Below are positions 2,104 through 37,307 of a DNA stretch of 64,000 bases, piece after piece. Positions within the stretch are counted from its first letter, which is position 1. Each line of letters starts with the position of its first letter. The position numbers were made by a program, and so were the translations under genes. The notes beneath the pieces were generated by a model. The model had not been told where the DNA came from, did no database searches, and worked only from the letters and a program-made list of their open reading frames with translations. Source of the DNA: Nemertoderma westbladi (taxonomy: Eukaryota; Animalia; Xenacoelomorpha); contig JAUCBJ010004237.1 of assembly GCA_032718475.1 (NCBI GenBank), positions 608 to 64,607 on the forward strand. The letters run 5' to 3'.

Positions 2104-2673
2104 CTAACGCCTTCTATCCGTATATGAGTGATGGGCTGAAAGAATGCACTTAACCAAGGAGCACTTTGTGAATCCATCCCAATTACCATTGACCTTCTCC
2201 AAAAGTGTATGGAGGCCCAACTTCTTAAAGGAAAACTTTGCCAGAGATTTGGATGTTGTTTTTCCGGCGAAAGAACACTTTTTAGCTAATTCTCTAGTCA
2301 TGAGATATTCTTCCATCTGTCTCAATACAGCTTGTTTCATATTGGAACCACCGACTCTTTGCAAAGCAATAAATGTCTTTGGATCGGCGATTAACGTGAC
2401 AAGTTCATTCTTCATTTTCGCTCTAATTATTGATTCCGTAACATCCTGTTGCAGGTTACTGTGACTCTGACTATCTACACGTTGACTTAACCTCACTACT
2501 TCCTCCTTAATTTGACCTACCTTTGTGGCAATACTCATGAGCGTCAATCGATTATTTTTTGACATTAAAAACGTCGATATATTTAACTGACGATCTGACA
2601 ATCTTTTTAATTCTGGTGGTTCTTCTGGCAAGTCCTGATCAACAACTGAAATAACTTCCGAATCCTTATCAAC
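2104..2673 (-). pseudogene. C-terminal half of a DUF4806-domain accessory ORF of an EnSpm/CACTA-like transposon, split by the BEL insertion
   Basis: VGGSNMKQAVLRQMEEYLMTRELAKKCSFAGK...FSFKKL resembles DUF4806. It joins in frame with 15653-15100 across the TCAAC TSD (NVVTPVD|KDSEVISVVD). Confidence 0.75.
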
Positions 2674-3218
2674 TGTTAGCTTATTCAATCCCGCTAACAC
2701 CCCATAAAAGTTAAGCCGATAAGCAATATTGGGGGCCACGAGATTGGGTAATCACCAACTCGTGTCACCCCAATAAAATGGGAAGGAGAAACACAATGAG
2801 GGTCAGGGGCCAAACCCCTAACCCAGAGAGAACAGGTGGAGTGAACGGGAACACTCCAAAGGGCGCCAACAAGGGTATCAACCAATCAGAGGGGGGAAAG
2901 GCATCGATTAGGTAGAGTAACAAGGCCAACCCGTGCAATATAGCCAGTTGGCAGTAATCATTTCCTTCAGTTATCTCAGTATCATATTGGTGCTAGTTAG
3001 GTTAGTTAGTTTAGCTAGGGAAGGACCGGGACTTTAATTACCGTATCCCGCCTTCCGGATACGACAACATTATCCATATCTATGCTTATATCTATATACC
3101 CGTACAACCGATTATTATATACGATGAACGACACGAACTCTTTTTACCTTTCACACACGGCGGGGACGCGTGAACTAAACAACCGGATAAACCGGGATCC
3201 TTCCTGGATCCCGTCACA
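2674..3218 (+). repeat. 5' LTR of the BEL element
   Basis: TG...CA ends. Matches 14555-15099 with only three substitutions that I could see. AATATA at about 2938 and TCAGTT/TCAGTA initiator-like motifs at about 2967-2981. Confidence 0.97.
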
Positions 3219-3292
3219 GTAATTAAAACTCAGAGCTGCCGCCCTAGCTAGCTAAACCCAGCGACTACCAGCCACCAATCGAACCAAGCGAG

Positions 3293-6200
3293 ATGAGTCA
3301 GTCGGGAGAGACGACGCCGACGCGGACCCCGGACGAAGAATTAACGATCCGCGAGGCCGCAACCAGGCGGTACAGGCCCACAACGCCGGACCCATCGGTA
3401 ACGGGTCATCCGGCAGCTCAGGATGAGGGGGGCCGCCTGGAACCCGAGGTCGAGCCGAGAGAAGGAGAGAGCGAGACGGAGGGAGACGGAGACGAGTCGA
3501 CACGAGACGCGGGTCGACGTACTGATGTCGCCGGCCAGCCACAGGCCGAAGGCGACGAGCGGCCCACCGAAACGGCGACGGTGGGGCCGACGGTACAACG
3601 CCGGACCCGAAGAGACGGAGGAGATGTCGGTACCGATGTCGCCGGCCAGCCACAGGCCGAGGGCGACGAGCGGCCCACCGAAACGGCGACGGTGGGGCCG
3701 ACGGTACAACGCCAGACCCGGAGAGACGGAAGAGAGGTCGGTGACGAGGACGTCGGGGTTTCTGATCGACTTCGACGGGCCTACAACGCGACCCGGAGAC
3801 TATTAGAGGAGGCCAGAGGAGGGGCAACGATAGACAAGGTAAAACTAAAGAAAGGACTAGGTGAGTCGAATAGACACTTTTATTATCTAATGCGCTTCGG
3901 GCAAAGAGAACTGGCCAAGGAGAGAGCGAGAGGGGTTGCCGAGGAACTGTATGACTTATGGCGGCATAGGGGTATGGAACCTAGCGTAGTGTACGTAGGG
4001 CCGTACTTAGTCGATGCCCGGGGAGTAAAATTAGTGGGTTGGGAGAGACCTGAGGAGGACGAATCCGAGGTTAACCCCGAGGATTCGGCCTCGTCGGTCG
4101 GAGGAAGTTCCGGGAGGCGGGGGAAAGTTAGTAGGACGGGGAGGCGGAGGGAATCCGTTACAACTGATAAGTCTGCTACATCCTCCGTAAAAGAAAGACG
4201 GGTGAGAGAGATAAATGCCACGTACCGTCTCGATTTAATAGAGCAAGGTCAAAGGGAAGTGGGTAGACGGTTAGAGGAGGGGAGAGTGCTGCTAGAGAGG
4301 GAAATGGCGTTGATTAAGGAAACCGGAGAGAGGGCCGAAAGGGCCGCGAGAAGCCTTAGGGAGTGTGAGGAAGTAGGGAGGAAGGAACAAGAAGAGCGCG
4401 AGGCGAGAGAGAAAAATGAGCGCAAAGAGCGTGAGGCGGAACGTAGGGAACGTGAGGCGAAAGAGGAAAACGAGTGCAAAGAGCGCGAGGAGAGAGAGAA
4501 AAACGAGCGCAGAGAGCGTGAGGCGAGACGAAGGGTGGGCGGACAACGGGATTAAACCCAGAAGTCGCGGAATACATACCGGCGAGTAGGCCAGAAGCTG
4601 ATAGGCCTATACCGGTACCAGCACAGCAGTATGACTACAGCATGCAGGGACATAACATATACCCAGGGGAGGGGGGAATTATTGCGGATAGGTGTATGGG
4701 CCCCAATATATTAACATCAACCCCAGTACCAAACATACCGGTGGGGGGGGGGGGGGGGGGGGGGCAGGGTGACATACCCCATCACAATATCAACAATATA
4801 CCCCGATAGGAGCAAGAACAACGAGACCCTTGGATGAAAATAGGTCGTGTGACACAGAAATATGGAGGGGGCCGCTACCCCCGATGACATACCCAAGTCA
4901 AAGAAGATCGGGAGATAGGACGGACAAACCGCACCAGACAGGAGAAACTATACAGCACCCATCGAATCCATTGGAAGCGCAGGCGATGGGGATGGCCACG
5001 TTGATCGATGCGTTGAAAACGAGGATCGAGTTACCACCCGTGGAACCATTCAAGTTCGATGGGAGTAGGCCGGAAGAATATCTACAGTTTCGGCGCATGT
5101 ATAGTAACGAAATACTAACAAAAAACTTGACGCAGGCGGAGTGCCTAAAGTATCTGCAAGTATACACGGGAGGCCCAGCATACGATATCGTGAGGCAATA
5201 TCAAGGAATAGAGGGCGGCTTCACGACAGCATGGCGGGCACTGGACAGGGAATACGGGCACCTGGCCAAGATCATCAGACAGACACTGAGAGGCATAACA
5301 TCGGGTGGCCTACAGGATAATCCCGTTAGCATTAAGACGTTCGCTAACAATGTCGAAAAGGCGCTAATCGTGCTGAAGACGCTAGACGCGCCATACGAGC
5401 TCAACGCGTCCAATGACATCACCACGATAGCGCAGGCACTACCGAACTGGCTGCGCAACAAGTGGAGGAAGATCGCTTTCTCCACTCGAGACAAGAAGGG
5501 TGCGGAACCGGGTTTAGAAGAAATGTCAAGCTTCTTAAACTACGAGGCTGAACGAATAACTGACCCAGTCTATAGCGAAGATAGCCTGGGAAAGGGACCG
5601 AAGACGGATTACCATAGACCGAAACCAGAGCACAATACATCAAACGCATTACCGAGGCTCAGGCAATCATTGCCATATGCAGCGACGCAGGGGACTGCAA
5701 GTCCACAGCTAGCCGAAGATAAGACAACACCATGGAACGGACAGGGGAACAATAACAACACGAATAAATATAACCCCAGTACGTCCAGTAGGCCGAATCC
5801 AAACAATAAGAATAGTAGGGACTTTGGTACAAACGCAGCTGCGATACGCAATGCGCTGTATAAGGAGGGCTACGACCCAAAGAGCAAATGCCAGCTACAC
5901 GCAAATGCGCTTCATCAAACCATGAACTGCAGGTACTGGCAGGCGCTACCTAGGCAAGATCAGATAGATTATGCGTTGAGCAATAAAATCTGCTCGCGAT
6001 GTTTGATGAGTGGACATAGAGCAAGGGAATGCAAGGAGAAGCCGGTCAAGTTTGGTCAAAGGAGAGGCCAAACGATGGCGACGAGCACAGTAGGGGCGAA
6101 GAAGAGAGGAACGGTGTTACTTGGAGTAGTACCCGTGCGAGTGATTGGGGAAGGCAATCGATCAGTAACAACACTAATGCTGGTTGATAGTGGAGCTGCC

Positions 6201-6944
6201 TTCACATTAGTCGAGGAATGGGTGGCCGAAGAGATAGGATTGAAAACGAGGCCAAGCAGAATGGCGGTAACAACCATCTCTAGCAAAGATGAGATCCTGG
6301 AGATGAGAACAGGACGGTGCGCAATTGCAGCAGTGGCACCGGGATGCGACTATGGGGCAACCATCGACCCCATCCAAGTGATAGAGTCAATTAATATCAA
6401 TGCCAGGCAGCCAACCAACATCGAGGTCGAGCAATATAAATTCCTGGACGACATTGACTTCTCAATCCCAGACGTGGACGTTAGGAAGGTATCCATCATA
6501 GTAGGAATGGATTGCCCAACGGCCCACGAAAGAATGCAAACGGTCTTCGGCGAAGACAAGCAGTGTGACCCGGTGGCGATATTAACACCATTCGGGTGGA
6601 CGCTGAGTGGCCCAATCAAGACCAAGATACCATTTAGGATGTTGGAGACATCAGGATGCATGTTCGCGGGAACAATGCAGGAAATGGGTGATGAGGGAGC
6701 AGAGGAGCAGCTTAAAAGACTGCCCAGACAAGTTTTCGAGGGACTAAAAGAGACCGGGGTCGGGACCTCGGTAGAAGACAAGCAGGCTTTACAAAGCGTG
6801 GAGGAATCGATGACATGCAGTGAGGGGCGGTATACTATAGGAATGGTATGGAAACTACCGAAGATACTGCTGCCCGATAATAGAGGGATGGTACTCACAA
6901 GACTCCGCAAGCTGAAACAAACACTAAAACGGAGCCCCGAGTAG
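3293..6944 (+). pseudogene. gag: BEL gag + protease part of the polyprotein, frameshifted near 4500-4550 and in the G-run at 4743-4764
   Basis: ORFs 3293-4555 and 4830-6944 are bridged by a third frame that the sister copy reads continuously into the gag core. Contains a 111-bp internal duplication, an E/R coiled coil, the DUF1759 core, knuckles CQLHANALHQTMNC and CSRCLMSGHRAREC, protease LVDSGA and TPFGW. Confidence 0.9.
3524..3730 (+). repeat. 111-bp (37-aa) tandem duplication in the gag N-terminus
   Basis: DVAGQPQAEGDERPTETATVGPTVQR occurs twice, with units starting at 3524 and 3635. Confidence 0.95.
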
Positions 6945-9900
6945 AATGAGTACATCCACAGAACGATCAAGAAGTACGTCGAGAAAGGATGGGCCGTGGG
7001 GTTACCGGTCGACGAACCGAACACGGACAGGACATATTACCTGCCACTCCACGTGGCTTTAAACCCAAAGAAAGGTAAACTGCGGATGGTAGTTGACGCA
7101 TCGGCAAAGACCAATGGAAAATGCTTAAACGACTACCTGTTAGAAGGCCCAAACATATACAACTCGGGCATAGAGGTGCTACTTAGATTTAGAAATGGGA
7201 AACACACCTTCACGTATGACATAGAAGGCATGTTCAACCAAGTCCGTGTAACGGAGGAAGATAGCGACAGTCAACGCTTCTTATGGTATAACGGCGAGGA
7301 AGAACCGTCGATAATACCGGCATATAAGATGGTAGTACAAAACATGGGAGCCAAGTCGTCTTCATTTACGACGACTATGGCAGTGAGGGATACAGTGAAA
7401 GGGAAGGAAGATAGATACAGCACTAGGGCCGTCGATATGATTCGACACGGCTTCTACGTAGACGACGGAATGGAGCCTGGAAATACGGTTAAGGAGATAC
7501 TGGACACGGGGCGCGAGGTTCGCGACATCCTAAAAGGATCCGGCTTTAACCTGACAAAATTCCAATCCAGTTCGGAAGAATTTATCAAGGCGATAGAGGA
7601 CAAGAGGCCAGAATCGACCATGGATAATCCCACAACAGCCAAAGGGCAGGACATGGCGAATAAGAGAACAGAATCTCAACAGAAGGCATTGGGAATCGTG
7701 TGGAACAGAGAGACAGACGAACTGAAGTATCAGCTGAGCCAGGAGGGCGCAGACATCCACACGAAGAGGGGCTATGTATCGTATATAGCAAGGATATACG
7801 ATCCCCTAGGCCTAGCATCCCCATTATTAGTCACGGGGAAACAGATACTCAAGAGAGTATACAAATTGAAGGATGAGTGGGACGTAGAGGTACCAGAGGA
7901 AATCAAGAAACAGTGGAGTAAGTGGACAGGAGACTTGGAGAAGATGGGAACATACAACATGCCACGAGTGTATTTCCCGGATGGGAACATGACGAATCTG
8001 GACCTACACATGTTCTCCGATGCGTCGTTGGAGGCGTACGGAGCGGCACTCTACTTAGTACAACGAGAGGGGGCTCATAAGCCCAGACTAGCCTTTAGCA
8101 AAGCAAAGTCAACGCCGCCAGATTCAGCATCAGTTCCCAAGTTAGAATTGACAGCTGCGAGACTAGGAGTTAGAGCCACAGCCTACCTAGTGGATACTAT
8201 TCCCAACATAGTGGAGACACACTACTGGACGGACTCCATGGTAGTGCTTGGTTGGCTACATAATGAAAGGACGAGATACCCAATATTCGTCGCAAATAGA
8301 GTGGACGAAATAAGGGCGACCACAGAACTGGAAAGGTGGCACTACTGCCCAACGGACGAGAACCCAGCGGACTTGTTGTCGAGGGGCGTGGTACGCCACA
8401 CTTTCTTGAAGAAGGAAGTATTGTGGCAACATGGGCCACAATTTCTGAGCGATAAGGAGGCCTGGCCGCCGATGAAAAAGGTGGACCCGGGCTCAGAAGT
8501 AGTGTCAGAGGGAGAAGAGGGAGATTCAGAGGGAGAAGAGATATACTCCCGGATGGTGAGGGAGATTAGAGACGTGCAACCAAGACGAGAACTGTGCGAT
8601 AACCCGACGGATAAACTCCTCAGCTACAGTTCTAGTTGGTATAAGACCAAGAAACTAGTGGCGTACTGGAGAGCCTTCAGGAATTTCCTCGCGGGAGTTG
8701 GCAAAGACAAGATCAAGACATACATAGATCTGGAAGGAGTGGCCAAGGCAATCATCCGCTATGAACAACGGAAGAACTATGGCGACGAGGTAGAACGCGT
8801 CGGTAACCAACAGCACCTCCGACGGGACAGCGAGCTGATCACGCTGTCGCCACAACTTAATGACGACGGGATTCTAGTAATGAACTCTAGGGTGGGATAC
8901 AACAATAGCATAATCGTACCACCGAAACCCATCATCATTCCAACAGGATCGCCAATAGTTCACCAGATTATCTGGGACTCCCATAAGTCGATATTGCACG
9001 GGGGCACCAACCGAACCCTCACCGAGATAAGGAGGACCTTTTGGGTCAAACAGTTGAGGAAGAAGGTAAAAGCGGTGGTGGGGCAGTGCCAGACCTGCCG
9101 ACGAGCGAAGAAGGAGCGAGCCATACAAGAGATGGCGCCACTACCAGCGAGTAGAGTAAGACAACACGACCCGCCATTTACGCATTGCGGTGTGGACATG
9201 TTCGGGCCGATAAAGATAAAGGTGATGCGGCACACGGAGAAGCGCTACGGTATCATCTTCGTATGTAACAACACGCGGGCGGTAGGGATAGAACTCGCCC
9301 AAGATGCAACCGCATCAGCATTCATTAATGCCTTAGAAAGGTTTAGAGACCGCAAAGGTGGGACGATCGCAGTGATATACAGCGACAACGGCACCAACTT
9401 TGTGGGCGCAGAGAATGAGATGGCAGAAGCCTTGGACATCTTGGAAGGGGAGGAAGTCAGGGCGGCCATGAGACGACGACAAGTAAAGTGGGAGAGAAGG
9501 ACGCCGTATGCACCACATACACTAGGATGCGTCGAGAGACTGGTGGGCAGTTCAAAGCGTCTAATGACGAAGCTAATGAACACCCACATGGTCACTGAGG
9601 ACGTCCTGAGAACAGTATTGGCGAAGTGTGAGGGTATCATTAATAGCAGACCGCTATATCCGGAGAATGATGACCCTGAGTCACTAGACATGCTGACGCC
9701 TAGCCATTTTCTAATGGAAAGGCCAGCGACCATCGATATGCGGGGTGTAGATCCAGACGACATACACTCCCGCCAGAGTTGGAAAGTCGCTAAAGCAATA
9801 AGCGCCGAGTATTGGAGGAGGTGGGTCGAAGAATACCTGCCCATGCTCCATAAAAGAAGCAAGTGGAGGAAGCAGAATAGGGAGTTAAGAAAGGGAGATC

Positions 9901-10091
9901 TCGTAATCGTTACGGATGATACTATCATCAACAACCAATGGCGGTTGGCGAGAGTTGTAGGCACTTACTCCGACGAGGACGGAAGAGTCCGATCGGTAGA
10001 AGTGCGGATAGGTGGTAAGATAGGTGCGAAGGACAGAAAAACCTACAGGAGAGCTGTAGGGAAATGCTGTCTGTTAGAAGGGGCACCTTAG
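6945..10091 (+). CDS. pol: BEL pol: reverse transcriptase, RNase H (Peptidase_A17-type), integrase, DUF5641-type tail
   Basis: RT motifs KLRMVVDAS, DIEGMFNQV, FYVDD; YDPLG; RNase H motifs FSDAS, PKLEL, WTDS, NPAD; HHCC zinc finger; integrase GVDMFGP / SDNGTNF / VERLV. Same frame as 4830-6944, separated by one TAG. Confidence 0.96.
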   Translation, partial: NEYIHRTIKKYVEKGWAVGLPVDEPNTDRTYYLPLHVALNPKKGKLRMVVDASAKTNGKCLNDYLLEGPNIYNSGIEVLLRFRNGKHTFTYDIEGMFNQVRVTEEDSDSQRFLWYNGEEEPSIIPAYKMVVQNMGAKSSSFTTTMAVRDTVKGKEDRYSTRAVDMIRHGFYVDDGMEPGNTVKEILDTGREVRDILKGSGFNLTKFQSSSEEFIKAIEDKRPESTMDNPTTAKGQDMANKRTESQQKALGIVWNRETDELKYQLSQEGADIHTKRGYVSYIARIYDPLGLASPLLVTGKQILKRVYKLKDEWDVEVPEEIKKQWSKWTGDLEKMGTYNMPRVYFPDGNMTNLDLHMFSDASLEAYGAALYLVQREGAHKPRLAFSKAKSTPPDSASVPKLELTAARLGVRATAYLVDTIPNIVETHYWTDSMVVLGWLHNERTRYPIFVANRVDEIRATTELERWHYCPTDENPADLLSRGVVRHTFLKKEVLWQHGPQFLSDKEAWPPMKKVDPGSEVVSEGEEGDSEGEEIYSRMVREIRDVQPRRELCDNPTDKLLSYSSSWYKTKKLVAYWRAFRNFLAGVGKDKIKTYIDLEGVAKAIIRYEQRKNYGDEVERVGNQQHLRRDSELITLSPQLNDDGILVMNSRVGYNNSIIVPPKPIIIPTGSPIVHQIIWDSHKSILHGGTNRTLTEIRRTFWVKQLRKKVKAVVGQCQTCRRAKKERAIQEMAPLPASRVRQHDPPFTHCGVDMFGPIKIKVMRHTEKRYGIIFVCNNTRAVGIELAQDATASAFINALERFRDRKGGTIAVIYSDNGTNFVGAENEMAEALDILEGEEVRAAMRRRQVKWERRTPYAPHTLGCVERLVGSSKRLMTKLMNTHMVTEDVLRTVLAKCEGIINSRPLYPENDDPESLDMLTPSHFLMERPATIDMRGVDPDDIHSRQSWKVAKAISAEYWRRWVEEYLPMLHKRSKWRKQNRELRKGDLVIVTDDTIINNQWRLARVVGTYSDEDGRVRSVEVRIGGKIGAKDRKTYRRAVGKCCLLEGAP

Positions 10092-10254
10092 TGGAGTTAG
10101 AGAAGTGTTTAGTCGTCCAAGCTTTGGACTGAGGGGGGTGGGATTGAGGGCGAGACGCCCTTCCAACACATAAAAAAAAAATAATAAAAAAAATAAAAAT
10201 AAAATAATAGTACATAGTAGGTACGCAGTTAGTAGGCAGAAGTTAGTCAGTAAG

Positions 10255-10790
10255 AAGGTACGTAGTACCTAGAGTTAGTTAGTTAAGAGGTACGTAGTAC
10301 CTAGAGTTAGTTAGTTAAGAGGTACGTAGTACCTAGAGTTAGTTAGTTAAGAGGTACATAGTACCTAGAGTTAGTTAGTTAAGAGGTACGTAGTACCTAG
10401 AGTTAGTTAGTTAAGAGGTACGTAGTACCTAGAGTTAGTTAGTTAGTTAGGAGGTATGTAGTACCGCTAGTTAGGAGAGAGTTAGAGGTACGTAGTACCT
10501 AGAGTTAGTTAGTTAGTTAGGAGGTACGTAGTACCGCTAGTTAGGAGAGAGTTAGAAGGTACGTAGTACCGTTAGTTAGAGAAGAGTTAGAGGGTACGTA
10601 GTACCGTTAGCTAGAGAGTTAGAGGGTACGTAGTACCGTTAGTTAGAGAAGAGTTAGAGGGTATGTAGTACCGTTAGTTAGAGAGTTAGAGGGTACGTAG
10701 TACCGCTAGTTAGAGAGTTAGAGGGTACATAGTACCGTTAGTTAGAGAAGAGTTAGAGTTAGAGGGTATGTAGTACCATTAGTTAGAGAG
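10255..10790 (+). repeat. Tandem array of about 16 units of 31-40 bp, each a GGTAC-GTA-GTACC hairpin plus (GTTA)n/GA-rich spacer
   Basis: Consensus GAGGTACGTAGTACCTAGAGTTAGTTAGTTAA in the first units, changing to GGGTACGTAGTACCGTTAGTTAGAGAGTTAGA. Confidence 0.95.
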
Positions 10791-11291
10791 AGAGAGTAAG
10801 AGGTAGAAGGGTATATAAGATATAGATATTAGTTAGCAGTTAGTAGCGAGAGGGAGGCATATGAGTACAGTTGGGTAAATCGTGTGGCCACACGACGCAT
10901 ACTTCTGTACTGCACAAGCCCACAGAGTAGGCCAGAATGTGGATTAGAGAATAGAATAATCCATAGGCAATAGTAAGTAGTAGGACAGTAGAATTAAAAT
11001 TAAACTAAAAATAAATAGATAGATAAAAATAAATAGAATAGGGCTGAAAGTTACAAATTATGGCAACACTAGGAAAGTTATTCTGGAACATAATAAAAGT
11101 AACGGACAGAAATCGAAATTAGGGTGTATTTACTAGCTTCAGAATTAATTAGTAAGAATTTAGGCTAAAAGGGCGCAGTTAAGTAAGGAATAGGCCATTA
11201 TCGGACTGTACAGAACATCTTAGATACATCACTCATCTGTATTGCGCCTTGGTAAGGCACCACCTTACAGGTGAGCGAGTGAGTGTTCGGA

Positions 11292-12986
11292 ATGGCGAGC
11301 AAATTGATCAGAAAGAGAAAGGCGGAGTCAGGAGGAAAGGAGATACTGGTGGATTTCACCGAGAGGCATCCGGAAGAGAAGACGAGAGGATACTACGAGA
11401 GGTTGGAAAGGGGTCACGCGGCACGAGCGCTGCAGGATCACTTCCGGGAGATGCACGAACAGCGGCTGGTCGGGACCTACGGGACGCCGTCGCTGGACAA
11501 CGCGATCTTCCAACACTTCCACTACGTGGTGAAAGGGGACGATGCGAAGTTCAGGATTCCGAAGTACCCGAGGGAATCACCGAGGAAGGACTGGAAGAGA
11601 TTCATAGAGTCTGTCAACAGGGGAGGATATATGATCCTAGACGACGAGGGAACCGTGGAAGACGAGGCGGGTTCGAGACGAGGATCGGCGGGGTCGGCCA
11701 GGACCATACTCCTACATTTGGCCGCACCAAATGGGGACATCTTCTTATTCGATCTAGGAACGTATGGGAAGAAGGACGGGCCAAAATTAAACCGGTTGCC
11801 GAAAGCGGTACAAGTCTTGGTAAGAGAGAAGTCGACGACGAAAGTAGGATCGGCGATTCGCGAGGATGCGGAGAGAATCATCGGTCCGGACGCCACCAAC
11901 CTCCTGGATATGCAGAAGGTCTTTATGGCTATGACGGCACCGGATGGGTTGGGGGTAGTCGAAAACACAGGCCAATGCGGGGCAGTGGCAATGGGCCAAC
12001 TATTGGGGCTCGTGTGCCACAAACCGATGGACTGGGGGAAGTTCAGGGAAGAATACGGAGCAGAACTAGCGAACTCGCTAAAGTGGGGAGCGAGACCGGG
12101 AAAGCAAGAGGTATATCAATTCCGCAGAGGAGCGATAAAGGTATATCAGAAGCGATATATCCTGCAGGAAGACTGGATGATGATAAGTTTGCTTAACTTA
12201 TTTATGACCGTGGTTATCGAGAGGGAACCAGCGGCATTTCTGTTATCAGGATCACCCCTAAGCTACAGGAGAGCCTTTAAAATGGCCTCCGACTGTCTGG
12301 CAGACCACCCGGGGCTGAAGGGCGAGTCGGTGTACTACAACAGCCGACATCTGGTAGACGGGGAGACAGATACGCCGTATCAGAGATGGGAGCAGCTAGA
12401 AACGGATAGACGAGAAGCAAAGCGACTGGAAGAAGTCGCTAGATGGGAGAGGATAGAAGCAGAGGAGAGGGAAGAGGAGGCCAGGACGCAGAGTTACGTG
12501 TTCGAGGAACAGGCAGGCTTAGACGAACTTCATTGGACTTCGTCAGGGAGTTCGGGGGAGTCTCTAGGGCGAGAACTGGGATGGACGGTGGGATCACCGA
12601 AACAGTCGACGTCGGGGTTGCAAGAGATGCCCATACCAGCGGGCGCCGAAGGCGACCAACCGCCAAGGAAGTTAAGGGAACTAGAGGGATGGAGAGCTAC
12701 GGGCGAGAGCCAAGGCGGGAAGGGACATAGTGGATCCATCGGGATACCGGGGTTGGAGCCACTGCCAGAGGAGGAGGATGACGACGAGTTCGGAGAGATG
12801 CCGCCCATCGAGAGGATAGGCCACTCGGACACGGACTGGGTTGGCGGAAGGGTGGTGACGGCCAGTGGGCGAGGGCCTTCTGGAACAGATCCGGTAAACG
12901 GACCTGGGTGCACGAGGAGCCGGCGATGGATTTCGCGGGGAGCACTATCAGGTTGGGCGAGCAACCGGGGACGGCACCACGGATAG
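11292..12986 (+). CDS. Accessory ORF with a DEDDy 3'-5' exonuclease domain (WRN/Mut-7/EXD/RNase D-like)
   Basis: ExoI ILDDEG (11634-11651); ILLHLAAPNGDIFLFDL; LPKAVQVLVREKSTTKVGSAIREDAERI (ExoII Asp at 11865); NLLDMQ; KWGARP...QKRYILQED (ExoIII-like). First ATG at 11292. Confidence 0.8.
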   Translation: MASKLIRKRKAESGGKEILVDFTERHPEEKTRGYYERLERGHAARALQDHFREMHEQRLVGTYGTPSLDNAIFQHFHYVVKGDDAKFRIPKYPRESPRKDWKRFIESVNRGGYMILDDEGTVEDEAGSRRGSAGSARTILLHLAAPNGDIFLFDLGTYGKKDGPKLNRLPKAVQVLVREKSTTKVGSAIREDAERIIGPDATNLLDMQKVFMAMTAPDGLGVVENTGQCGAVAMGQLLGLVCHKPMDWGKFREEYGAELANSLKWGARPGKQEVYQFRRGAIKVYQKRYILQEDWMMISLLNLFMTVVIEREPAAFLLSGSPLSYRRAFKMASDCLADHPGLKGESVYYNSRHLVDGETDTPYQRWEQLETDRREAKRLEEVARWERIEAEEREEEARTQSYVFEEQAGLDELHWTSSGSSGESLGRELGWTVGSPKQSTSGLQEMPIPAGAEGDQPPRKLRELEGWRATGESQGGKGHSGSIGIPGLEPLPEEEDDDEFGEMPPIERIGHSDTDWVGGRVVTASGRGPSGTDPVNGPGCTRSRRWISRGALSGWASNRGRHHG

Positions 12987-13834
12987 TATTCGGGGAGACG
13001 ATGCCCGAGAGGGGCGGAGAGATCGACGTAGACAGGGACACCAACGTAGAGAAGTTCGCCTACCAGCGACTCCACAGACCGCGGAGATCGCTTGGGACGA
13101 AGGACGACGTGGGGCCGGAGACATTGGTACTCGGCTGCAACTACTGTGGCAGGCAGACCCACCAGGAAAGGAGCTGCTTGTACCGGTTCCAAAAGGGAAC
13201 CTTTTGTCTCTACTGCCGAGAGCCGAGCCACAGGATGGGGGCGTGTCCACGGTTGCATAACCGATGTCCAAAGTGCAACTTTCGGGGACACTACGGACGC
13301 CAGTGTGACTGGATGGACGACGAAGAGAAGTTCAGAAGATTCGAGGAGTGGGCCGACGTCGGGGCCATGACGCGCCAGCGCATGAAGGCCCAGGAGTTCA
13401 AGTGGGGTTTCTTCCTTATCAATCAGGAGGCTCACATGGAAATCATAAGGCGGAGGCTACCGTTTACCTATCAAGAGGTAGCAACAGCAGCGTCGTATGC
13501 CGGAGTGATGAACACACAAAGATATTTGGACAGGTGGACGCCACAGAACTGAGGGGAGTTTAGGGATTTCTTGGCGGAGCACGTGCCGCGAGCAATGAAG
13601 ATGATCCTATGGGACGCCATCAGAGGGAGACAACAGGGCCACTCTGAGGGGCCACCGGCGAAGCGATATCAGGCACTAATAACACCAGCGCCCAAGGAGC
13701 CAACAACCGGAATCAGCAGGGAGGTGGCGGCGAAAGTCCGAAAGCAGAAAGCGGATCCCAGAGGAGCGGTGGTAACCAAGAAACGACCCAGGGAAGAGGA
13801 TGCCAGGGGGAACTATCCCCAGAGGAACAGATAG
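12908..13834 (+). CDS. Triple CCHC zinc-knuckle region, probably the frameshifted C-terminus of the exonuclease ORF
   Basis: CNYCGRQTHQERSC, CLYCREPSHRMGAC and CPKCNFRGHYGRQC. ORF 13571-13834 is in the same frame after one TGA at 13550. Confidence 0.8.
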
Positions 13835-14545
13835 GTTCCCAGGGCCGGGGGGAGAGAAACTGAGACTTGGACGTGGTACGCCTGGAAGGCGCCGCGTGGG
13901 ACGTACGAACTATTAAGTACAAATTAAGCTGATGCAAATAATTAAATAAGTGCAATTATATGTACGTACGTAGTAATCAGTAGTTTAGCAATAAAATATA
14001 CGTTCGGAGTAAGTACTATAGTCATACAACCTTTCTCAATTAGCTACTGGGACTGGGGGGATAACTGACTATGGCACTATGAATGAGACACCAGACGATT
14101 TCACACTTCTTGAGTGCGACGGCACAAGAGGGGGGGGGGGGGAGATTCGTCAGAAGGGATGAGGTAGTCGAAGCGGGGTTGAGGGACGGAGTAATAGTGC
14201 GAAGTGCGGAGAGAGTGCGGACGCAATTCTAGTGTGGGGGGGGGGGGGAGAATAAGAGGCTGAGTGAGGGACGAGGAGGTCCGAGGGTATGAGAGAGTTA
14301 GGGTGAGAGTGGAGAAGAGATAGGGCGAAAGTGTTGGGGAAACAAAAGTCGCGTGAGAGGTGAGCGCGATCGGCCCGACATGGACGCCAGGCATACAGGG
14401 TAGCGTTATCATACCCATAGGGAGCAGCCTGGAAAGCCGGCTCCGAGAGAAAAGAATTCCACCCCACACCCGATACTAGATCGGGATCCAGCGGGATTGT
14501 AGCGCACTTAAGGTGGATGCTATCTTCTCACCGGGAAGATAGCAT

Positions 14546-14554
14546 GGGGGGGAG
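14546..14554 (+). other. Polypurine tract
   Basis: GGGGGGGAG directly abutting the 3' LTR. Confidence 0.85.
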
Positions 14555-15099
14555 TGTTAGCTTATTCAATCCCGCTAACACCCCATAAAAGTTAAGCCGA
14601 TAAGCAATATTGGGGGCCACGAGATTGGGTAATCACCAACTCGTGTCACCCCAATAAAATGGGAAGGAGAAACACAATGAGGGTCAGGGGCCAAACCCCT
14701 AACCCAGAGAGAACAGGTGGAGTGAACGGGAACACTCCAAAGGGCGCCAACAAGGGTATCAACCAATCAGAGGGGGGAAAGGCATCGATTAGGTAGAGTA
14801 ACAAGGCCAACCCGTGCAATATAGCCAGTTGGCAGTAATCATTTCATTCAGTTATCTCAGTATCATATTGGTGCTAGTTAGGTTAGTTAGTTTAGCTAGG
14901 GAAGGACCGGGACTTTAATTACCGTATCCCGCCTTCCGTATACGACAACATTATCCATATCTATGCTTATATCTATATACCCGTACAACCGATTATTATA
15001 TACGACGAACGACACGAACTCTTTTTACCTTTCACACACGGCGGGGACGCGTGAACTAAACAACCGGATAAACCGGGATCCTTCCTGGATCCCGTCACA
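14555..15099 (+). repeat. 3' LTR of the BEL element
   Basis: 545-bp direct repeat of 2674-3218, followed by TSD TCAAC. Confidence 0.97.
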
Positions 15100-15653
15100 T
15101 CAACAGGAGTCACGACATTGCGGCGCCTGTAAACTGTTTGGCCAGTTGGAGCAGGTAGAGAAGTGGTATTTTCAGTTTCCTCTATCGAAAAAGGACCAGG
15201 TGGTTCTGCCATTCGTGTCTCAACTACATTTGTACGGTTAGAATCTACCAGTGGTCGTTTTGAATGATGTGCTTGTTCATCTTCGGAAGAAGCCTGAGGT
15301 GGGCCCATTCGCTTGTACAATGGAAAATGGTGGCGCCTTCTTGCGGATTCCGACTTGGGGACAACCCGAGGAGTCAAATTTAATAGTTGTTCGAACCTAT
15401 AGCCAAGTCTCTTCATGTCTCTGGCCTTATTCAATATCACATTAAACTCTTCATCGCCTAAGAAACCATGGGTTAGTATATTTACATCACATAATTGTCC
15501 TTCATAATTCACCCTATAGTTACCACCTTGAAGCTTTGGCTTACCGTCGTAATCTTCTACCTCAGACGATAAATCAACAATGAATATTGAATTGTCCGCC
15601 CTGCAGTACACAATAGCATTTTTGTAGGTATCATCAACGTCATTGACATCCAT
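15100..15653 (-). pseudogene. N-terminal half of the DUF4806 accessory ORF
   Basis: ORF starts at ATG 15653, runs into the LTR at the TSD and resumes in frame at 2668. Confidence 0.75.
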
Positions 15654-15668
15654 ATTTAATAATAATAA

Positions 15669-17606
15669 TTACTTTCTATTACAGAGTACTGAAACATAAA
15701 ACAGATCATGGTGAGGAAAACAGATAAACCAATGGAATGACTCTATTATAGTTTCTATGACTGAACCATACCTAAATAAACCCTCCCCATACCGATGACT
15801 CACACATGGAGATGAATATAGATCAGCCACATGTTCAAGTTTATTTCCTGAAACGTTAATACTCTGAATATCATAGGAAACTAATGACACTATTATGACG
15901 CATTTACTATCATTTACATAAATACAGTTTCCCCTTTTCAATTTCACTACTTTGATTTAAGTCTTCGTTTCAGAATGGACATGTAGGATTCGAAATGGAA
16001 TGCGCTCCATTTATCCAATGCTCCAAATTTCTCAACATAATCAACAATGTGGGATAAAATGTAAACATTATACGTATACATGATAGATGGTGTATAGAGT
16101 TCAGACAACTTTGAATGAAAATTGTTAATTAGATCTCGTGCATACGAAGTATATATTACGTTAGAAGCCAAATCATTTGACACTAAGATTTGGACAGTAA
16201 CATGGAGCATCATAAGATTATCAAAATATAGCTTTGGGAGAAATTCTTTCATGAGTGGACTGGCATATAGTAAGAAGTTCCTAAATTCTGAAGCTTTAAA
16301 GTGTTTTAATTCGTCAAATCCACGTAATTTTCGATTAAATATTAAAGGCATATATCTTCCAAATGATTTGAGAATAGAATTCAGATCACATTTCCTACTT
16401 GGTCGAAGAGCACATGGCAAAGGCATAGTACGACTACAAATGAAATCGGTAGAGACCCAACTACTGATCAACTGCTTCACTACACCCAGGCACACATATA
16501 CAGTGCATGTATTCTGGAGGTACAGATGATACAAAGCCAAATAAATTCCTTAAAGGTGATAAACTTTTCTGGTGGACTGTATCTGAAATGGAAAGATATT
16601 CGTGATCTGTTCGAGGAACAAAACCGCTTCCCGGAAAAATGTTCTTTGTATTTTCAATATTACGAGCACCATAAATTTTACAATATGTGCAAGAACCATA
16701 ACCAGAATGGCCTTTATTACACAGTAGCCAGGTACAAGCAGGGACATCTGCAATAAGAAGCATTGTTATAATGTGATTCGAAAAAACATAGTCTATAAAC
16801 AACTTTAAATACTCTGAAACATTGTAAGGTTTACCACTTGGTCCAACCCAAAGCGCGATTACAAATGGAGGTATATTTGATCATAAATACAACCAAGTAT
16901 TGGCCAATATGAAGCATTTGATAACTTAGTCCATGGAGTGCCATCAATGTTAATAACAATTTGCAAAGAATGATAATCACGCGAAATTCCAAAAAATCTC
17001 ATATATCCCCCAGAGCAGTATGTGATGTCTTTTTTGGAAGGATATAATGTTCTATTGCTATCTAACAACAGCAAATTATGATGATGACGAAGGGTTTCGG
17101 TAGATAACGGTAAATCTGGATGACCGCTAATTTTCAAAATAGACAATAGTGATGAAAATGCCCAGTCGGAAACGGTAGCAATTAGTGTTTAGCCAGCTTA
17201 GGAGACAACAGCACAGCTTGTCATTTTTAACATACATATCATCATTGGAACTGCACATTTCAATAACACTATCAACTGATAATACATCACTTTCATCACT
17301 ACTACTGTCCGAATCACAATGACTAGCTTCTGACAACTGACTAGTTGTAGTCATATCTATATCTACAACTGCTGTGCAAGCTAAAGAATTAATCGGTATA
17401 CCGGTATTGATATCGGTATCATCATTTATCAGAATATTTTGATGAAGCTGCTCTGGAGCTATAGCCAATGTGTCACCTTGACTGTTCTGGTTTTCGATTA
17501 CCGCTACCGGTACTGGAATAATCGAATCGGTAGGACTATGTAAAAAAGGAATCTCATTTGCTATCTCTCTTTGTTGGCTCCGAAATAATGACGACCTTGA
17601 TGACAC
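15669..17606 (-). pseudogene. EnSpm/CACTA-type (animal) transposase, frameshifted
   Basis: INIDGTPW...YWPILG; ADVPA...KGHSGYGSCTYC; EYMH..CLGVVK; FNRKLR...FKASEFRNFLLY; YNVYILSH...FGALDKWSAFHFESY. Confidence 0.85.
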
Positions 17607-18537
17607 ACTACTGACGTAGCTTTGGCAGTATGGTGTACTGGGAGACTGGTATCGTTAAAATAGACCTAAAATAGGCTAATCTTCTTCGGGAATAATTAAT
17701 CCGGCACAGTCTGGCGATCTGGCACAGTCGGCACAAACTAAAATCGGAAAATAAACTAAAATAATAGGCCTACGCCTACTACTACCGGCTGACCCGTACC
17801 GGTACCGTACTGCGTACCGTACTGTCAGACTGTATTAGAGTAGGCCTCAGGCCTACAGTAGTGGGCAGTAGAAACATTTTGGCACCTGGCATGCCATGGT
17901 GGAATTGTTACAAGAAACCTAGAAGTTTCTTCCGCGCATTTGAGAAATGCGCGGCTTAACGCCGCCTAATGACGATTTTTCACCGCACAGCGGAGCGTGA
18001 CAAGTCTATGCCGCCGAACCCACTTGGTGTGAATCTGAAACTGAACTGAGTAGGGCCTACCGGTACCAGTATTGAGTAGCCTACCGGTACCGTGAATGTA
18101 CCGTAGCAATGCAATTTAGCAGTTCAGCAATTAAATCTGCCACCATCTGTAGGCCTACCCTACAGGTCTATGTCTATTGTCTATCTGTCTATGCCAATCT
18201 AAAACTATGCCATTTAAAAAATTTCCAATCGCTCCGCTCGCATTTACATTCGCTAGGCTATTTCATATTTAAACATTTAAAGTACCGGTACCGCAATTTA
18301 TTATATACTAGAATAAACTATAATTTAAAAATCTTCTGGCATCTTCCATCTTCCACATACATTGTGGAAAATATACCGAGCCAGCGTATTTTCTTACCAT
18401 AGGGAGGCCTGTATATGCTGAATTGCTGACATCATGCCTTCCACGTACTGCATACAGACGTAATAGTAAAAATACAGAAGTACGCGGCGTATCTTCCGCG
18501 TAAATTCAAGCAATTCCAGTCTGGCTGGCGTAGCCTT

Positions 18538-18896: not shown

Positions 18897-20395
18897 AATA
18901 TAAGTTTAAATTAAGTAAAAAAAGTTAGGGAATATGACTGTAGGGTGTGAGATCAAGTTGTTTTAGTATAATAATATAAATCTTTTTGGAATAGTCATAA
19001 ATTGGAAGTTGTAACTCGCCGCGCACCAACCTTAAAGAATATCCTTGCGCCATCCAGACTGAGGTGTACAACTGAGGTGTACTTCATCTAGTGATTTTCT
19101 AGGAGTTCATAAATGTGACAGAGCGGCATGTGTCCCCTGTAAAGTATTATTACCTTTAAAATATGTCAGCTCAACAACTAACAAAAGCCACAGGGTTTAT
19201 ATAAAGAATGATTTATCTTGCAATGCTAAAAATGTTATTTATGTGGTGACTTGCCTTAAATGTAACTTATTTGGTATCGGTTCAACAGAGGACTTAAAGC
19301 CTAGGATAGCCAACTACAAGACAAAGATAATTAATGACAAACCATCGACTGCCATCGACAGACATTTTACTACCTCGGGTCATTCGTACAATGCACACTT
19401 CAGAATTACACCATTTGATTGTCTACCGATCTCAGCAAACAAAAAACTGAACCGACAAAAACTCAGAATTAAAGAGGGAGAATGGCAGTGCCGGTTGGAA
19501 ACTTTACAACCAATGGGTTTGAATGTTCTCAACAAGGCGGTGATCAATAACTTTGGACTTGATGTTTTCAATCCTTAAGAATTATAAAGATTAAAGATTC
19601 ACAAATTCAACAAACTCATTAGTTGCTAGGGTAGTATTATTATTTGTAGTGCAATAATTCTAGAATATCGTTTATTTGAAAAAGATAGAGAGAGCTATCG
19701 AAAGCTAATAATAAAAAAATAAATTTTTAGTGATTGATCATATAAGTTGTCACTTTTTGAATTCTTAAAATATTATTATACTAAAACAACTTGATCTCAC
19801 ACCCTACAGTCATATTCCCTAACTTTCTTTACTTAATTTAAACTTATATTAATTTTTGACTGTGGATGAATGGCGATTGTACCAAGAATTTTGTTCCTAC
19901 AATTAATAAATTTAGGCTCGCAACTAATTTTGGGTCAACTTCAAAGATAATTTCTTGAAAATTGCAAGAAGCACAACGTAATACCGAAGGGTTTGAGGAT
20001 TTGCTTAAACCTTAATTTACCTGGTAATTCTATTCATTTTGAACAGGTTCGCATTAAAGCTAAAAATAATATTTTTAAAGCCGAATTAAATATTTTGGAA
20101 GTTGTTTCTCTTCATGCCGAGACGAGGCGAAGACATTTTCTTAGTCTTTTTATGAGAGCTAAATCATCTGCTATCACCTATGATAATTCGAATTCAATCT
20201 TGTCCCGCGTTTATGATCACATGAAAAACACTTCTCGTACAGTGAGACAGCGTCTGATAAAAAAGTGGAACAGTTTAATGAATGAAACCCGCTCTGCTTC
20301 AAGCCCCAACAATGTTTTATACGATAATTTGTTATCTCATAAAAGACATAAACCTGGACCTCAGAGATCCGCACAACGTAGACTTAATTACTTAA
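18897..20395 (+). mobile_element. Penelope-like element: inverted pLTR piece, GIY-YIG C-terminus, pLTR, then N-terminus of the next tandem copy
   Basis: 18897-18977 is the reverse complement of 19770-19850. KCDRAACVPC...LSCNAKNVIYVVTCLKC..GIGST...HF...EGEWQCRLETLQPMGLN. N-terminal motif FLENCKKHNVIPKGL at about 19950-19995. Confidence 0.88.
19671..19714 (+). ncRNA. Minimal type-I hammerhead ribozyme in a Penelope pLTR (U3:A8 variant)
   Basis: TTTAT-TTGAAAA-A-GATAG-AGAGAG-CTATC-GAAA-GC-TA-ATAATAAA. A second copy with a stem mismatch lies at about 22217-22260. Confidence 0.6.
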
Positions 20396-21801
20396 CCCTA
20401 TTAAACCTGGGGGGGTGGGGGGGGTCAATATGACCCCCCCCGTGGTTTTTTTATTATAATTCTGAAACAAACGCAGTTGGGAATCTGAAATTTTATGACT
20501 TTTCCTAAAAATCTATTGTCTTCCTAGTAGTGAAAACCGTTTTCAAAAATATTGGGTACTTTTCGAGTTATAGCACCATTTTTTAACCCTACTTTTGGCA
20601 CTTTTTTTGAGACGTTTTTTGAAAATTACATTTCATTAAATATGAATTGTAACATCTCTATTTTTGATTTACACCGTTTTTTTGGTGTTAGAAATTTGAT
20701 GGAATTCATATAAATTGATTTAGAAATTTCGAACTTGTTTTTTTCGGTGGGTGCCAAATTTTGGTGCCAGCACCAAATTTTGAATTATGTCAATTTTGTA
20801 ATTTGATTGTTTGAAACTTGTTTTTTACGCAATTGGGGTTTTTTGGGGTTCTGGATTCGATGAAATATATACGAGTTGCACCAAGCGTATCAAACTTGTA
20901 TTTTTCGGTGCTGTGTGCAAATTTTGGTGCTAGCACGAAATTTTGAAAATTCATTCGATAGATAAAATTGCTTGTGACAATTTATTTCTTGCGTTTTAGA
21001 GGTTTATGGCTGTTCTGAATTCAATGGAATAAATAATTATCGAACTAGACATCTTAAACTTGTATTTTTCGGATGTGGGTGCAAAATGTGGTGCTAGCAC
21101 CACATTTTGCACCCGCTTCCGAAAAATACAAATTTGAGATGCCTAGATCGAAAATTATATATTCCATTCAATTCAGAATAGCCATAAACCTCTAAAACGC
21201 AAGAAATAAATTGTCACAAAGAATTTTATCAATTGAATGGATTTTCAAAATTTTGTGCTAGCACCAAAATTTGCACCCACCACCGAAAAATACAAGTTTG
21301 ATACGCTTGGTGCAACTCGTATATATTTCATCGAAACCAGAACCCCAAAAAACCCCAAATGCGTAAAAAACAAGTTTCACACAATCAATTTACAAAATTG
21401 ACATATTTCAAAATTTGGTGCTGGCACCAAAAATTGTCACCCGCCGAAAAAAACAAGTTTGAAATTTCTAAATCAATTTATATGAATTCCATCCAATTTC
21501 TAACACCAAAAAACCGGTGTAAATCAATAATAGAGATGTTACAATTCATATTTAATGAAATGTAATTTTCAAAAAACGTCTCAAAAAAAGTGCTAAAAGT
21601 AGGGTTAAAAAATGGTGCTATAACTCGAAAACTACCCAATATTTTTGAAAACGGTTTTCACTACTAGGAAGACAATAGATTTTTAGTAAAAGTCATAAAA
21701 TTTCAGATTCCCAACTTCCCAACTGCGTTTGTTTCAGAATTATAATAAAAAAACACCGGGGGGGGGGGGGTCATATTGACCCCCCCCCGGGTTTAATAGG
21801 G
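20396..21801. mobile_element. piggyBac-type non-autonomous foldback element (1406 bp)
   Basis: TTAA on both sides (20392-20395 and 21802-21805). Ends CCCTATTAAACC / GGTTTAATAGGG. Palindromic over nearly its whole length, centred near 21096. No coding capacity. Confidence 0.92.
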
Positions 21802-22328
21802 TTAAATGTAACTTATTTGGTATCGGTTCAACAGTGGACTTAAAGCCTAGGATAGCCAACTACAAGACAAAGATAATTAATGACAAACCATCGACTGCCA
21901 TCGACAAACATTTTACTACCTCGGGTCATTCGTACAATGCACACTTCAGAATTACACCATTTGATTGTCTACCGATCTCAGCAAACAAAAAACTGAACCG
22001 ACAAAAACTCAGAATTAAAGAGGGAGAATGGCAGTGCCAGTTGGAAACTTTACAACCAATGGGTTTGAATGTTCTCAACGAGGCGGTGATCAATAACTTT
22101 GGACTTGATGTTTTCAATCCTTAAGAATTATAAAGATTAAAGATTCACAGATTCAACAAACTCATTAGTTGCTAGGGTAGTATTATTATTTGTAGTGCAA
22201 CATTTCTAGAATATCGTTTATTTGAAAAAGATAGAGAGAGGTATCGAAAGCTAATAATAAAAAAATAAATTTTTAGTGATTGATCATATAAGTTGTCACT
22301 TTTTGAATTATTAAAATATTATTATTAT
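21802..22328 (+). mobile_element. Second copy of the Penelope GIY-YIG C-terminus and pLTR
   Basis: Near-identical to 19256-19779. Ends in (TA)n. Confidence 0.9.
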
Positions 22329-32907: not shown

Positions 32908-33254
32908 TTATTACCCATTAACCAATCAAGGCCCACCACTCTGTCACCCCTATTATTACCTCACTGTATTTCTACAGCTTACCGAGCTCAACATTACTCA
33001 TTCACTATAGTTGATCTCATTTCTGCAGTTTCCCAAATGGAAACTCCCCCTATTAACACTCTTTATTACATTGTATTCTTGACTCTTACGATATTTTTAC
33101 GTTTATATTATTAGATCTCTTATTATGTATTCATGTTCTTGTATTTCCGTATATCTTATTACCCCTTACCGCTTATAATCCTATATTATTATCTTATATA
33201 TTGTCTATAATAAATACGCTCCTAATTGCCAATCAAATAAACAAATTATTCTTC
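32908..33254 (+). repeat. Partial duplicate of the solo LTR at 37308-37808
   Basis: Direct repeat of about 37455-37800 with few substitutions. Confidence 0.9.
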
Positions 33255-33371
33255 ATGGGATGTAACCGTGTAAACTGGGTGAAATCCATCTATAGTTGAA
33301 CATATTACAATCACATAGATCATCTTATTGTTTTATACACAAGAGCATATCAATCGCTCTTACAATCGCTC

Positions 33372-36300: not shown

Positions 36301-37307
36301 TCACATGGTAGGAGTTTGCGAGCATAACCCTTCAAGACATAATCGTCTATTTTTTGTTGATAAAGGGCATGGATATATATGTGGCTTACGATGTAGCTGA
36401 CGGATTAAATATGCGAAACTAGATTTTGCCATATTATAATTATTAATTAATAATGGAGGTGAGTCCCTCCAGAGCATTCCTACCTGATAGTGACCATCCA
36501 CTAGACGTATTGACTTAGAAAACATTTCTAATGCTTTTAAGTCATCCATGGATGGTGATAGAAACTCATCGATCAGGGGTGAGGGTTTTGGGTCTGAAGG
36601 TGAACTTTCAGCAAAACTCTGAAATTTCATCCATTGAGTGACCTGTTTAGAGATGTCGCGGTCTGTGCAAGGGTCACTGACTGTGATGTGATTAAACTGT
36701 GTTACTGTACTATTGGGTTCAACTGCTTTACAGCTCACAGGACCGATTATGCACCATCCAAATGGTGTCCTAATTGCAGAGGGATTAGGGTTCCCAGCCT
36801 TTGGGAATACATGTACATCCCTAGCTAGGGCCTCAGGATGGTTACCACCAACCAGAATTGTGATTGATGGGATATCAAGATTAGGGCAGCATGTCACATA
36901 TGGCAATATGTGATCTAAGTGCTGGAGCGTTTTAGGACACAGTTGTGTTACATCATATGAGTAATCCCTTTTGAAATCGGGGGCTACAAATACTTGAGGC
37001 ATGTTGATGACAAAATTGGGTTTAATTTCTGGCTGTCCTTTGATAGGTGAGATACTACATGATATTTCCCCTAAAGAAACAGACATATTTGATTGGAAGA
37101 CAGTACTAACATTAAGAGAAGTAGTTTCGGGAATGATACCAAGAGTATCAGTTACATTTTTGTCAACAAATGTCGCAGTAGACCAATCAGTGCATCAGAG
37201 CAGTGCATATGTAGTGAGTGATTTATTGGCAATGCATATGGTTACTGGGACTACTGATAACCATACGGGTTGTACTTTGGCAATTGATAAGTGTACAGAC
37301 ATGGAAT
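33372..37307 (-). mobile_element. pol: Internal fragment of a second BEL/Pao family (protease-RT-RNase H-integrase), frameshifted
   Basis: TPFGW, RIVNDAAA, DIKEMYHQV, MYVDD, YDP, FSDAS, PRLEL, WTDS, NPADD, HHCC, AVDMFGP, SDNGRNF. Confidence 0.93.

Follow-up and report, generated by a model that had tools for sequence, protein, structure and literature searches.

A predicted DEDDy exonuclease gene in the env position of an abundant BEL/Pao retrotransposon from Nemertoderma westbladi

Introduction

Exonucleases of the DEDDy class have been described as retrotransposon cargo in bdelloid rotifers, where they are encoded by the ORF3s of Juno and Vesta and of Athena/Terminon elements (Rodriguez et al. 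2017, PMC5408684). The rotifer proteins have a DEED tetrad and no activity has been shown for them; the same study names no BEL/Pao or nematode case (PMC5408684), and the available sections of two reviews repeat its finding (PMC6431247, PMC5718144). For BEL/Pao elements themselves, the accessible text of a metazoan survey holds no word beginning 'nuclease' (PMC3118150), and the excerpts at hand of two further papers mention third ORFs as env-type only (PMC554778, PMC13524379). The closest cellular architecture is that of the Trypanosoma brucei RNase D (TbRND), in which, according to the available portions of its description, the enzyme needs its zinc-finger domain to bind RNA and to trim efficiently, and guide RNAs become depleted when it is overexpressed (PMC7797062).

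Here we analyse a stretch of 64,000 nucleotides from N. westbladi (contig JAUCBJ010004237.1, positions 608 to 64,607), hereafter the window. A preliminary description made from the sequence had placed in it a BEL/Pao retrotransposon carrying a DEDDy 3'-5' exonuclease in the env position, and had mentioned precedents in rotifers and nematodes. The rotifer precedent is confirmed (PMC5408684), while the nematode one was not found in the literature searched, to the extent that its text was accessible. The same description knew of no characterised BEL example, and none was found in the openly accessible main texts searched.

Anatomy of the element

The 12.4-kb element (Table 1) is an LTR retrotransposon of BEL/Pao type. 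Its LTRs have TG...CA termini and are bounded by a 5-bp target-site duplication, and gag, protease (PR), reverse transcriptase (RT), RNase H (RH) and integrase (IN) follow in that order with BEL/Pao-type domains. The class named in the preliminary description stands because Peptidase_A17 (E 1e-40), DUF5641 (8e-24) and DUF1759 (4e-10), all matched by Pfam in the element, are BEL/Pao markers. The lineage is divergent, since the best 120 RT-RH relatives listed, all with PF05380, are only 34–39% identical to it. The copy in the window is broken: an in-frame stop separates protease from RT, and the third gene shifts frame.

Table 1. Features of the element in window coordinates.
Feature	Position	Strand	Remarks
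Left target-site duplication	2669..2673	.	TCAAC; identical 5 bases after 3' LTR
5' LTR	2674..3218	+	545 bp, TG...CA; 99.45% identity to 14555-15099, 3 mismatches
LTR bases complementary to first 9 post-LTR bases	3033..3041	+	9 bases; possible self-primer
Primer-binding-site position	3219..3236	+	without TGG for tRNA CCA end; read from sequence
Gag-region frame 1	3248..4555	+	acidic/coiled, two 111-bp repeats; without Pfam match
Gag and aspartic protease	4773..6944	+	DUF1759, Cys-His boxes; in-frame stop at end
Pol	6945..10091	+	RT (YVDD), RNase H (DAS), integrase, DUF5641; BEL/Pao type
32-bp tandem array	10241..10817	+	pol-ORF3 interval; TATA-like motif (10812) at end
ORF3	11292..12986	+	564 aa; from a basic N-terminus through exonuclease domain and charged helix to a low-complexity, acidic linker
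Predicted DEDDy (PF01612-like) 3'-5' exonuclease domain	11580..12260	+	aa 97-323
Overlapping zinc-knuckle frame	12782-13552	+	three CX2CX4HX4C knuckles; likely ORF3 C-terminal part, out of frame here
Individual knuckles	13136-13177, 13205-13246, 13265-13306	+	
Polypurine tract	14546..14554	+	
3' LTR	14555..15099	+	second 545-bp repeat
Right target-site duplication	15100..15104	.	TCAAC

An A-rich run with AATAAA motifs lies shortly past pol (10170–10209), and some 480 bp upstream of ORF3 a TATA-like motif closes the tandem array. The run and the array (10241–10817) are possibly an internal terminator and promoter. Closer to ORF3, a junction around 11270 resembles either an AG acceptor or a GT donor. 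Besides the polypurine tract, the element has G-rich purine runs directly after the pol stop (10131–10138) and, twice, within the 1-kb tail (14126–14145 and 14236–14252). Right after the pol stop is the usual place of a BEL/Pao polypurine tract, and the run at 10131–10138 may be a candidate mark of the point at which the ORF3 unit was inserted.

Surroundings in the window

The insertion site of the element is a broken region on the minus strand (14973–17654), which we take to be DNA-transposon-like and whose frame resumes on the other side at 2104–2751. The family is represented once more at positions 1–1989, by a truncated copy that shares 96.3% identity with 4612–6601 and ends in the protease region, where a short palindrome (1992–2084) adjoins it; in gag-PR this copy and the full element are separated by 37 synonymous and 31 non-synonymous changes. 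Another BEL/Pao element, unrelated to the first and about 4.9 kb long (32908–37800, minus strand), has no room for a third ORF. It has 347-bp direct repeats that are 98% identical, is 33% identical to the first element in RH-IN, and is nested within 212-bp inverted repeats; the stretch after its 5' repeat is, we presume, tRNA-like, although ARAGORN found no tRNA there.

A perfect palindrome of 621 bp occupies 20475–21716, and around it (19063–22101) are what we take to be a GIY-YIG-like frame and Penelope-like pieces. Farther on, inverted repeats (25428–26026 and 31278–31879) enclose a minus-strand fragment (27384–28196) whose motifs would resemble those of a protein-primed, Polinton-like B-family DNA polymerase.

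The third open reading frame

ORF3 lies on the sense strand, past the pol stop (10091) and ahead of the 3' LTR (from 14555), in the interval to which it had been assigned, and opens with an ATG at 11292. The feature was at first thought to end at 12300; the frame in fact extends to 12986. All seven motifs listed in the preliminary description recur in this one frame and in the expected order, namely LDDEG at aa 116 (nt 11637), LLHLA at aa 140, FLFDL at aa 151, KVGSAIREDA at aa 184, LLDMQ at aa 204, WGARPG at aa 265 and QKRYILQEDW at aa 286. ORF3 would presumably be expressed separately, from an internal promoter or a spliced RNA.

No env-like architecture had been seen in this frame, and hydropathy, sequons, cysteine count and N-terminus all agree: the best 19-residue Kyte-Doolittle mean is 1.35, with no hydrophobic anchor, there are zero N-glycosylation sequons and four Cys residues, and the N-terminus is basic. 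Neither signal peptide, transmembrane anchor, glycosylation sites nor fusogen homology was found in ORF3, which is also without a Pfam match, and the named top matches of its model among the viral structures of BFVD are exonucleases and polymerases. The stretch RKRK at aa 7–10 resembles what we take to be a nuclear localisation signal.

Evidence for a DEDDy fold

Searches by sequence alone were blank for the domain. The Pfam comparison proposed at the outset (DNA_pol_A_exo1) gave no match to the ORF3 domain up to E 10, and the Pfam gathering score was not reached; lacking a PF01612 match the domain is therefore not a Pfam member, though predicted to work like one. There was no match to the domain in NCBIfam or among PDB sequences, none to ORF3 among 1.84 billion representative proteins or in plasmid, viral, metagenome and prokaryote contigs, and none among the 2159 candidates drawn from a set of 5.8 billion proteins (candidate lengths 310–987 only). 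PHROGs gave only weak matches, all of them outside the nuclease domain, and searching viral and metagenome contigs with pol yielded neither related elements nor a second cargo-bearing family.

Atlas and profile comparisons nevertheless place the domain with DEDDy nucleases, and we are confident that it has a DEDDy/RNase D-like fold. In the ESM Atlas, PF01612 is present in 24 of the 30 matches to the ORF3 query and in all 30 named clusters (score 0.93–0.94, 174–182 of 256 features common), against a background in which 4–10 of every 100 shuffles reach 0.9, a rate that does not refer to parts of proteins. When ORF3 was compared with 94 known DEDDy domains (bacterial RNase D, NrnC, PolA and WRN-like), local hhalign scored 30.4, while 150 shuffles gave 12.9 ± 2.4 with a maximum of 23.8 and the reversed sequence 11.8; the global score of 18.8 beat all 150 shuffles (maximum 9.7). 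In hmmsearch ORF3 ranked first of 1204 with the WRN-like profile and with the first combined profile, and second of 1204 with the final one; the first 16-seed HMM put it 11th of 1204, below the best shuffles. A MAFFT alignment sets D117, E119, D192, W265, Q286 and Y289 on invariant columns. Counting motif columns was rejected as strong evidence for DEDDy, because ORF3 agrees with only 8 of the 13 conserved columns, a level equalled or exceeded by 12 of the 191 shuffles.

Also noted were bacterial proteins of 650 aa in which a WRN-like exonuclease is combined with a protein kinase and leucine-rich repeats, and others in which the exonuclease is joined to a FliA sigma factor.

A single-sequence AlphaFold model of ORF3 was unusable (pLDDT 30.6). 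AlphaFold2 seeded with 59 DEDDy sequences gave pLDDT 71.8 and pTM 0.71, with the core at 81–90 and only the ExoIII insertion below 50, a result that is partly circular in that the seeds are themselves DEDDy domains. The RNase H-like fold that structure prediction had been expected to reveal is present in this seeded, partly circular model, with ExoI, ExoII and ExoIII in order, and together with the Atlas and hhalign results it supports the fold first proposed. Foldseek ranks 1–5 are all T. brucei RNase D, which was absent from the seeds (E 6e-6 to 2e-5, TM 0.35–0.41), TM-scores of the model overall being only about 0.3–0.5. VIA gives Z of 11.1–12.4 to twelve DEDDy chains (rmsd 3.2–4.7, 164–199 aligned), and EXD1 and Egalitarian stand high in both rankings. 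The layout had been likened to WRN-exo, Mut-7, EXD1-2 and RNase D. As a fold class this holds, but nothing points specifically to WRN, Mut-7 or EXD: VIA scores are tied across the family, and the top Foldseek match is the trypanosome enzyme.

That no set searched contains a sequence homologue would suit the view that the exonuclease likeness is coincidental, or that the window copy has ORF3 as passive cargo or by nested insertion. We consider this very improbable; against coincidence, independent fold signals from the Atlas and hhalign agree with each other.

Predicted catalytic site

From the alignment, the predicted site consists of D117 (11640), E119 (11646), D192 (11865), Y289 (12156) and E293 (12168), the last of which aligns with the final Asp of known DEDDy enzymes and is adjoined by D294. 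The ExoIII spacing had been called atypical (YxxxED); it is canonical, with E293 falling at Y+4, the place occupied by Asp in the known enzymes. The departure lies in the residue, Glu in ORF3 versus Asp in 59 of 59 seeds, and in the alignment an insertion of 12 residues directly precedes ExoIII. Klenow with Glu at the ExoIII position is said to stay active, a statement of which the literature searched holds no mention and on which nothing here relies.

Substitution and insertion would both fit a pseudo-nuclease, whose fold is kept for RNA binding as in Egalitarian and EXD1 and which might serve the element transcript as a knuckled adaptor or transport factor. The high placing of EXD1 and Egalitarian by Foldseek and VIA agrees with such a protein, and EXD1 and Maelstrom have been described as inactive DEDD derivatives (PMC5408684). 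Nevertheless all four site positions remain acidic, the general-base Tyr (Y289) and the ExoIII Gln are retained, and the sole copy difference listed for the E293 codon is synonymous; the rotifer ORF3s, moreover, also show D-to-E, at a different position (DEED, PMC5408684). A dead enzyme seems unlikely to us, and we judge the domain to be probably catalytically active.

An overlapping zinc-knuckle frame

Overlapping the end of ORF3 is a frame with three zinc knuckles (Table 1) that was absent from the preliminary description. Within the overlap the coding-type codon bias shifts from the ORF3 frame to the knuckle frame, and a short length difference there makes up 58%, 49% and 61% of the depth in sequencing runs X1, X2 and X5, respectively. 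Because the bias switches frame and other copies differ in length at this place, we infer a fusion of exonuclease and knuckles: the product of intact copies is likely a single protein, some 750 aa long, with nuclease, charged linker and knuckles in succession, its frame being broken in the window copy. In a comparison with the TbRND zinc-finger domain the three knuckles are in register (E 0.089, second PDB sequence match), although knuckle matches are generic and these knuckles, unlike those of TbRND, would lie some 300 residues from the nuclease.

The knuckles also incline us towards RNA as the substrate rather than towards RT proofreading. An enzyme acting on DNA, whether in proofreading or in trimming cDNA ends before integration, could draw on a fold that is found as well in DNA polymerase proofreading and in WRN, and the RKRK stretch, which we take to be nuclear-localisation-like, would suit it. 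CCHC knuckles, however, indicate single-stranded RNA, ORF3 is separate from Pol, and a family as highly diverged as this one (99+ to under 90%) gives no sign of unusual fidelity, so that a role on DNA appears improbable.

Copies and selection

Copies were observed via the contigs of sequencing runs only, and six of the seven runs listed contain the stretch or part of it, the best of them perhaps being the source sample itself. The low-depth pieces of run X6, which may be an RNA run, were left out as evidence of expression. ORF3 is not confined to the window copy: many diverged copies of it are present. Contigs on the 4.35 kb from 10850 to 15200 number 6085 in X1 and 10692 in X2, cover all 30 bins and fall into identity classes from 99+ down to under 90%; although summed depth cannot be read as a copy number, this is clearly a large family. 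The element is young.

Selection was judged from the best 40 of 785 difference rows, which are the best supported, come mostly from two divergent contigs and form a biased sample that gives direction but no dN/dS. Within ORF3 lie 31 of these 40 rows, 24 of them synonymous and 7 non-synonymous, where about 31% synonymous would be expected under the strong transition bias (P 1e-7 for the excess); given this excess, ORF3 is under purifying selection. Five of the ORF3 rows are private to the window copy and four of these are non-synonymous, as in post-insertion decay, while the 26 that segregate in the family divide into 23 synonymous and 3 non-synonymous. In the nuclease domain, 13 of 15 rows among the best 40 are synonymous.

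So strong a synonymous excess speaks against passive cargo, as does the coverage of every bin of 10850–15200 in both X1 and X2. Nor does a nested insertion in the window copy accord with the sequence, since no repeat of at least 40 bp flanks the ORF3 unit and the unit lies within LTRs that differ at 3 of 545 bases. Passive cargo and coincidence are thus largely refuted.

Primer site and primer maturation

The primer site of the BEL/Pao family is 18 nt long and complementary to tRNA-Arg/Gly (PMC8742986). The corresponding position here lacks TGG, so the CCA end of an intact tRNA cannot pair with it, and contigs of run X5 that continue past the LTR end likewise start without TGG. Nine bases within the LTR are complementary to the first nine after it (Table 1); when the LTR was Markov-shuffled 20000 times, complementarity of at least 9 bases arose in 125 cases, the match having been noticed post hoc. 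The minimum-energy fold of 3020–3250 does not form the 3033–3041 duplex, and the tRNA and Rfam searches of the element found no tRNA, no Rfam family and no primer RNA.

These observations bear on the main rival to our preferred reading, in which the nuclease would mature the element's own RT primer or RNA ends by trimming an unpaired 3' tail back to the duplex, the primer being annealed by an internal stretch or being the element's own 5' RNA. RNase D-type enzymes process the 3' ends of structured RNAs (PMC5408684), and self-priming is known for Tf1 and Tj1 from the available part of PMC4600332; the absence of TGG and the nine-base complement would both fit. Set against this are the post hoc nature of the match, the fold without duplex and the failure to find a primer RNA, and a separately expressed ORF3 would need to enter the particle. 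Primer maturation seems to us unlikely.

Proposed function

Our leading reading, which we hold tentatively, is that the selected gene in the env slot encodes a DEDDy nuclease, likely knuckle-fused, that trims host small RNAs or their precursors and so weakens silencing. The three knuckles would grip single-stranded RNA and the tethered DEDDy domain would trim its 3' end; the most likely substrate would be host small RNAs or precursors, and their trimming would weaken the silencing of the element. Mature piRNAs have a protective 2'-O-methyl end, so that such trimming could reach only precursors or small RNAs of other kinds. A small-RNA target seems likeliest because the family is abundant and Nibbler-type trimming acts in piRNA maturation, as the available part of PMC13269885 describes.

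A broader statement, which we regard as possible but somewhat more doubtful, is that a deeply divergent and abundant BEL/Pao lineage independently evolved a TbRND-like, active D-E-D-E exonuclease with three knuckles as a counter-defence or priming factor, which would degrade or wrongly trim the precursors of host piRNAs and siRNAs, or finish a primer that is not a tRNA. We rank small-RNA trimming first, with primer maturation as its main rival and the dead adaptor equally open; a DNA role and passive cargo are least likely.

Comparison with known systems

As a retrotransposon, the element agrees with Belpaoviridae in its LTRs, gag Cys-His boxes, PR-RT-RH-IN order, Peptidase_A17/DUF1759/DUF5641 domains, polypurine tract and optional third ORF (PMC8742986; accessible text of PMC3118150). 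It differs in length (12.4 kb versus 4.2–10 kb, PMC8742986), in a third ORF that is not env-like, in a primer-site position without the usual TGG, and in RT-RH identity, which is at most 39% among the best 120 matches listed.

Among cellular proteins, WRN-exo, EXD1/EXD2, Mut-7/Nibbler, Egalitarian and RRP6 share the fold class of the ORF3 domain, with VIA Z tied within about 1 and identities of 11–18%, and none is singled out. TbRND (PDB 7c42/7c45), the top Foldseek match, likewise has a DEDDy domain and tandem CCHC fingers. It is, however, a cellular enzyme of the mitochondrion; its four fingers follow the nuclease immediately on one polypeptide, whereas nuclease and knuckles here occupy two overlapping frames, the fourth site residue is Asp, and its identity to the ORF3 domain is 14–17%. 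We read the likeness as an analogy of architecture, in which the putative knuckle tail offers TbRND as a concrete model of substrate choice.

The closest parallel among mobile elements remains that of Juno and Vesta, compared here by description: in both they and the present element, the env position is taken by an ORF for an RNase D-like DEDDy protein that lacks transmembrane and env features and has one D-to-E change in its predicted tetrad. The host in our case is BEL/Pao, the predicted tetrad is D-E-D-E rather than DEED, and there is a long linker with a probable triple-knuckle tail. Juno and Vesta have 1–2 full copies in contrast to the abundant family described here, and purifying selection is seen here, while the rotifer study confined its tests of variation to env- and GDSL-like ORFs (PMC5408684). 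Nuclease cargo in the env slot was previously known from low-copy rotifer elements, with neither activity nor selection shown; the occurrence of a DEDDy gene under selection in a second LTR superfamily suggests that retrotransposons have recruited 3'-trimming enzymes repeatedly and adaptively. Since the family is abundant and its enzyme soluble and single-domain, it becomes directly testable whether animal retrotransposons encode enzymes that oppose small-RNA silencing or make primers of their own.
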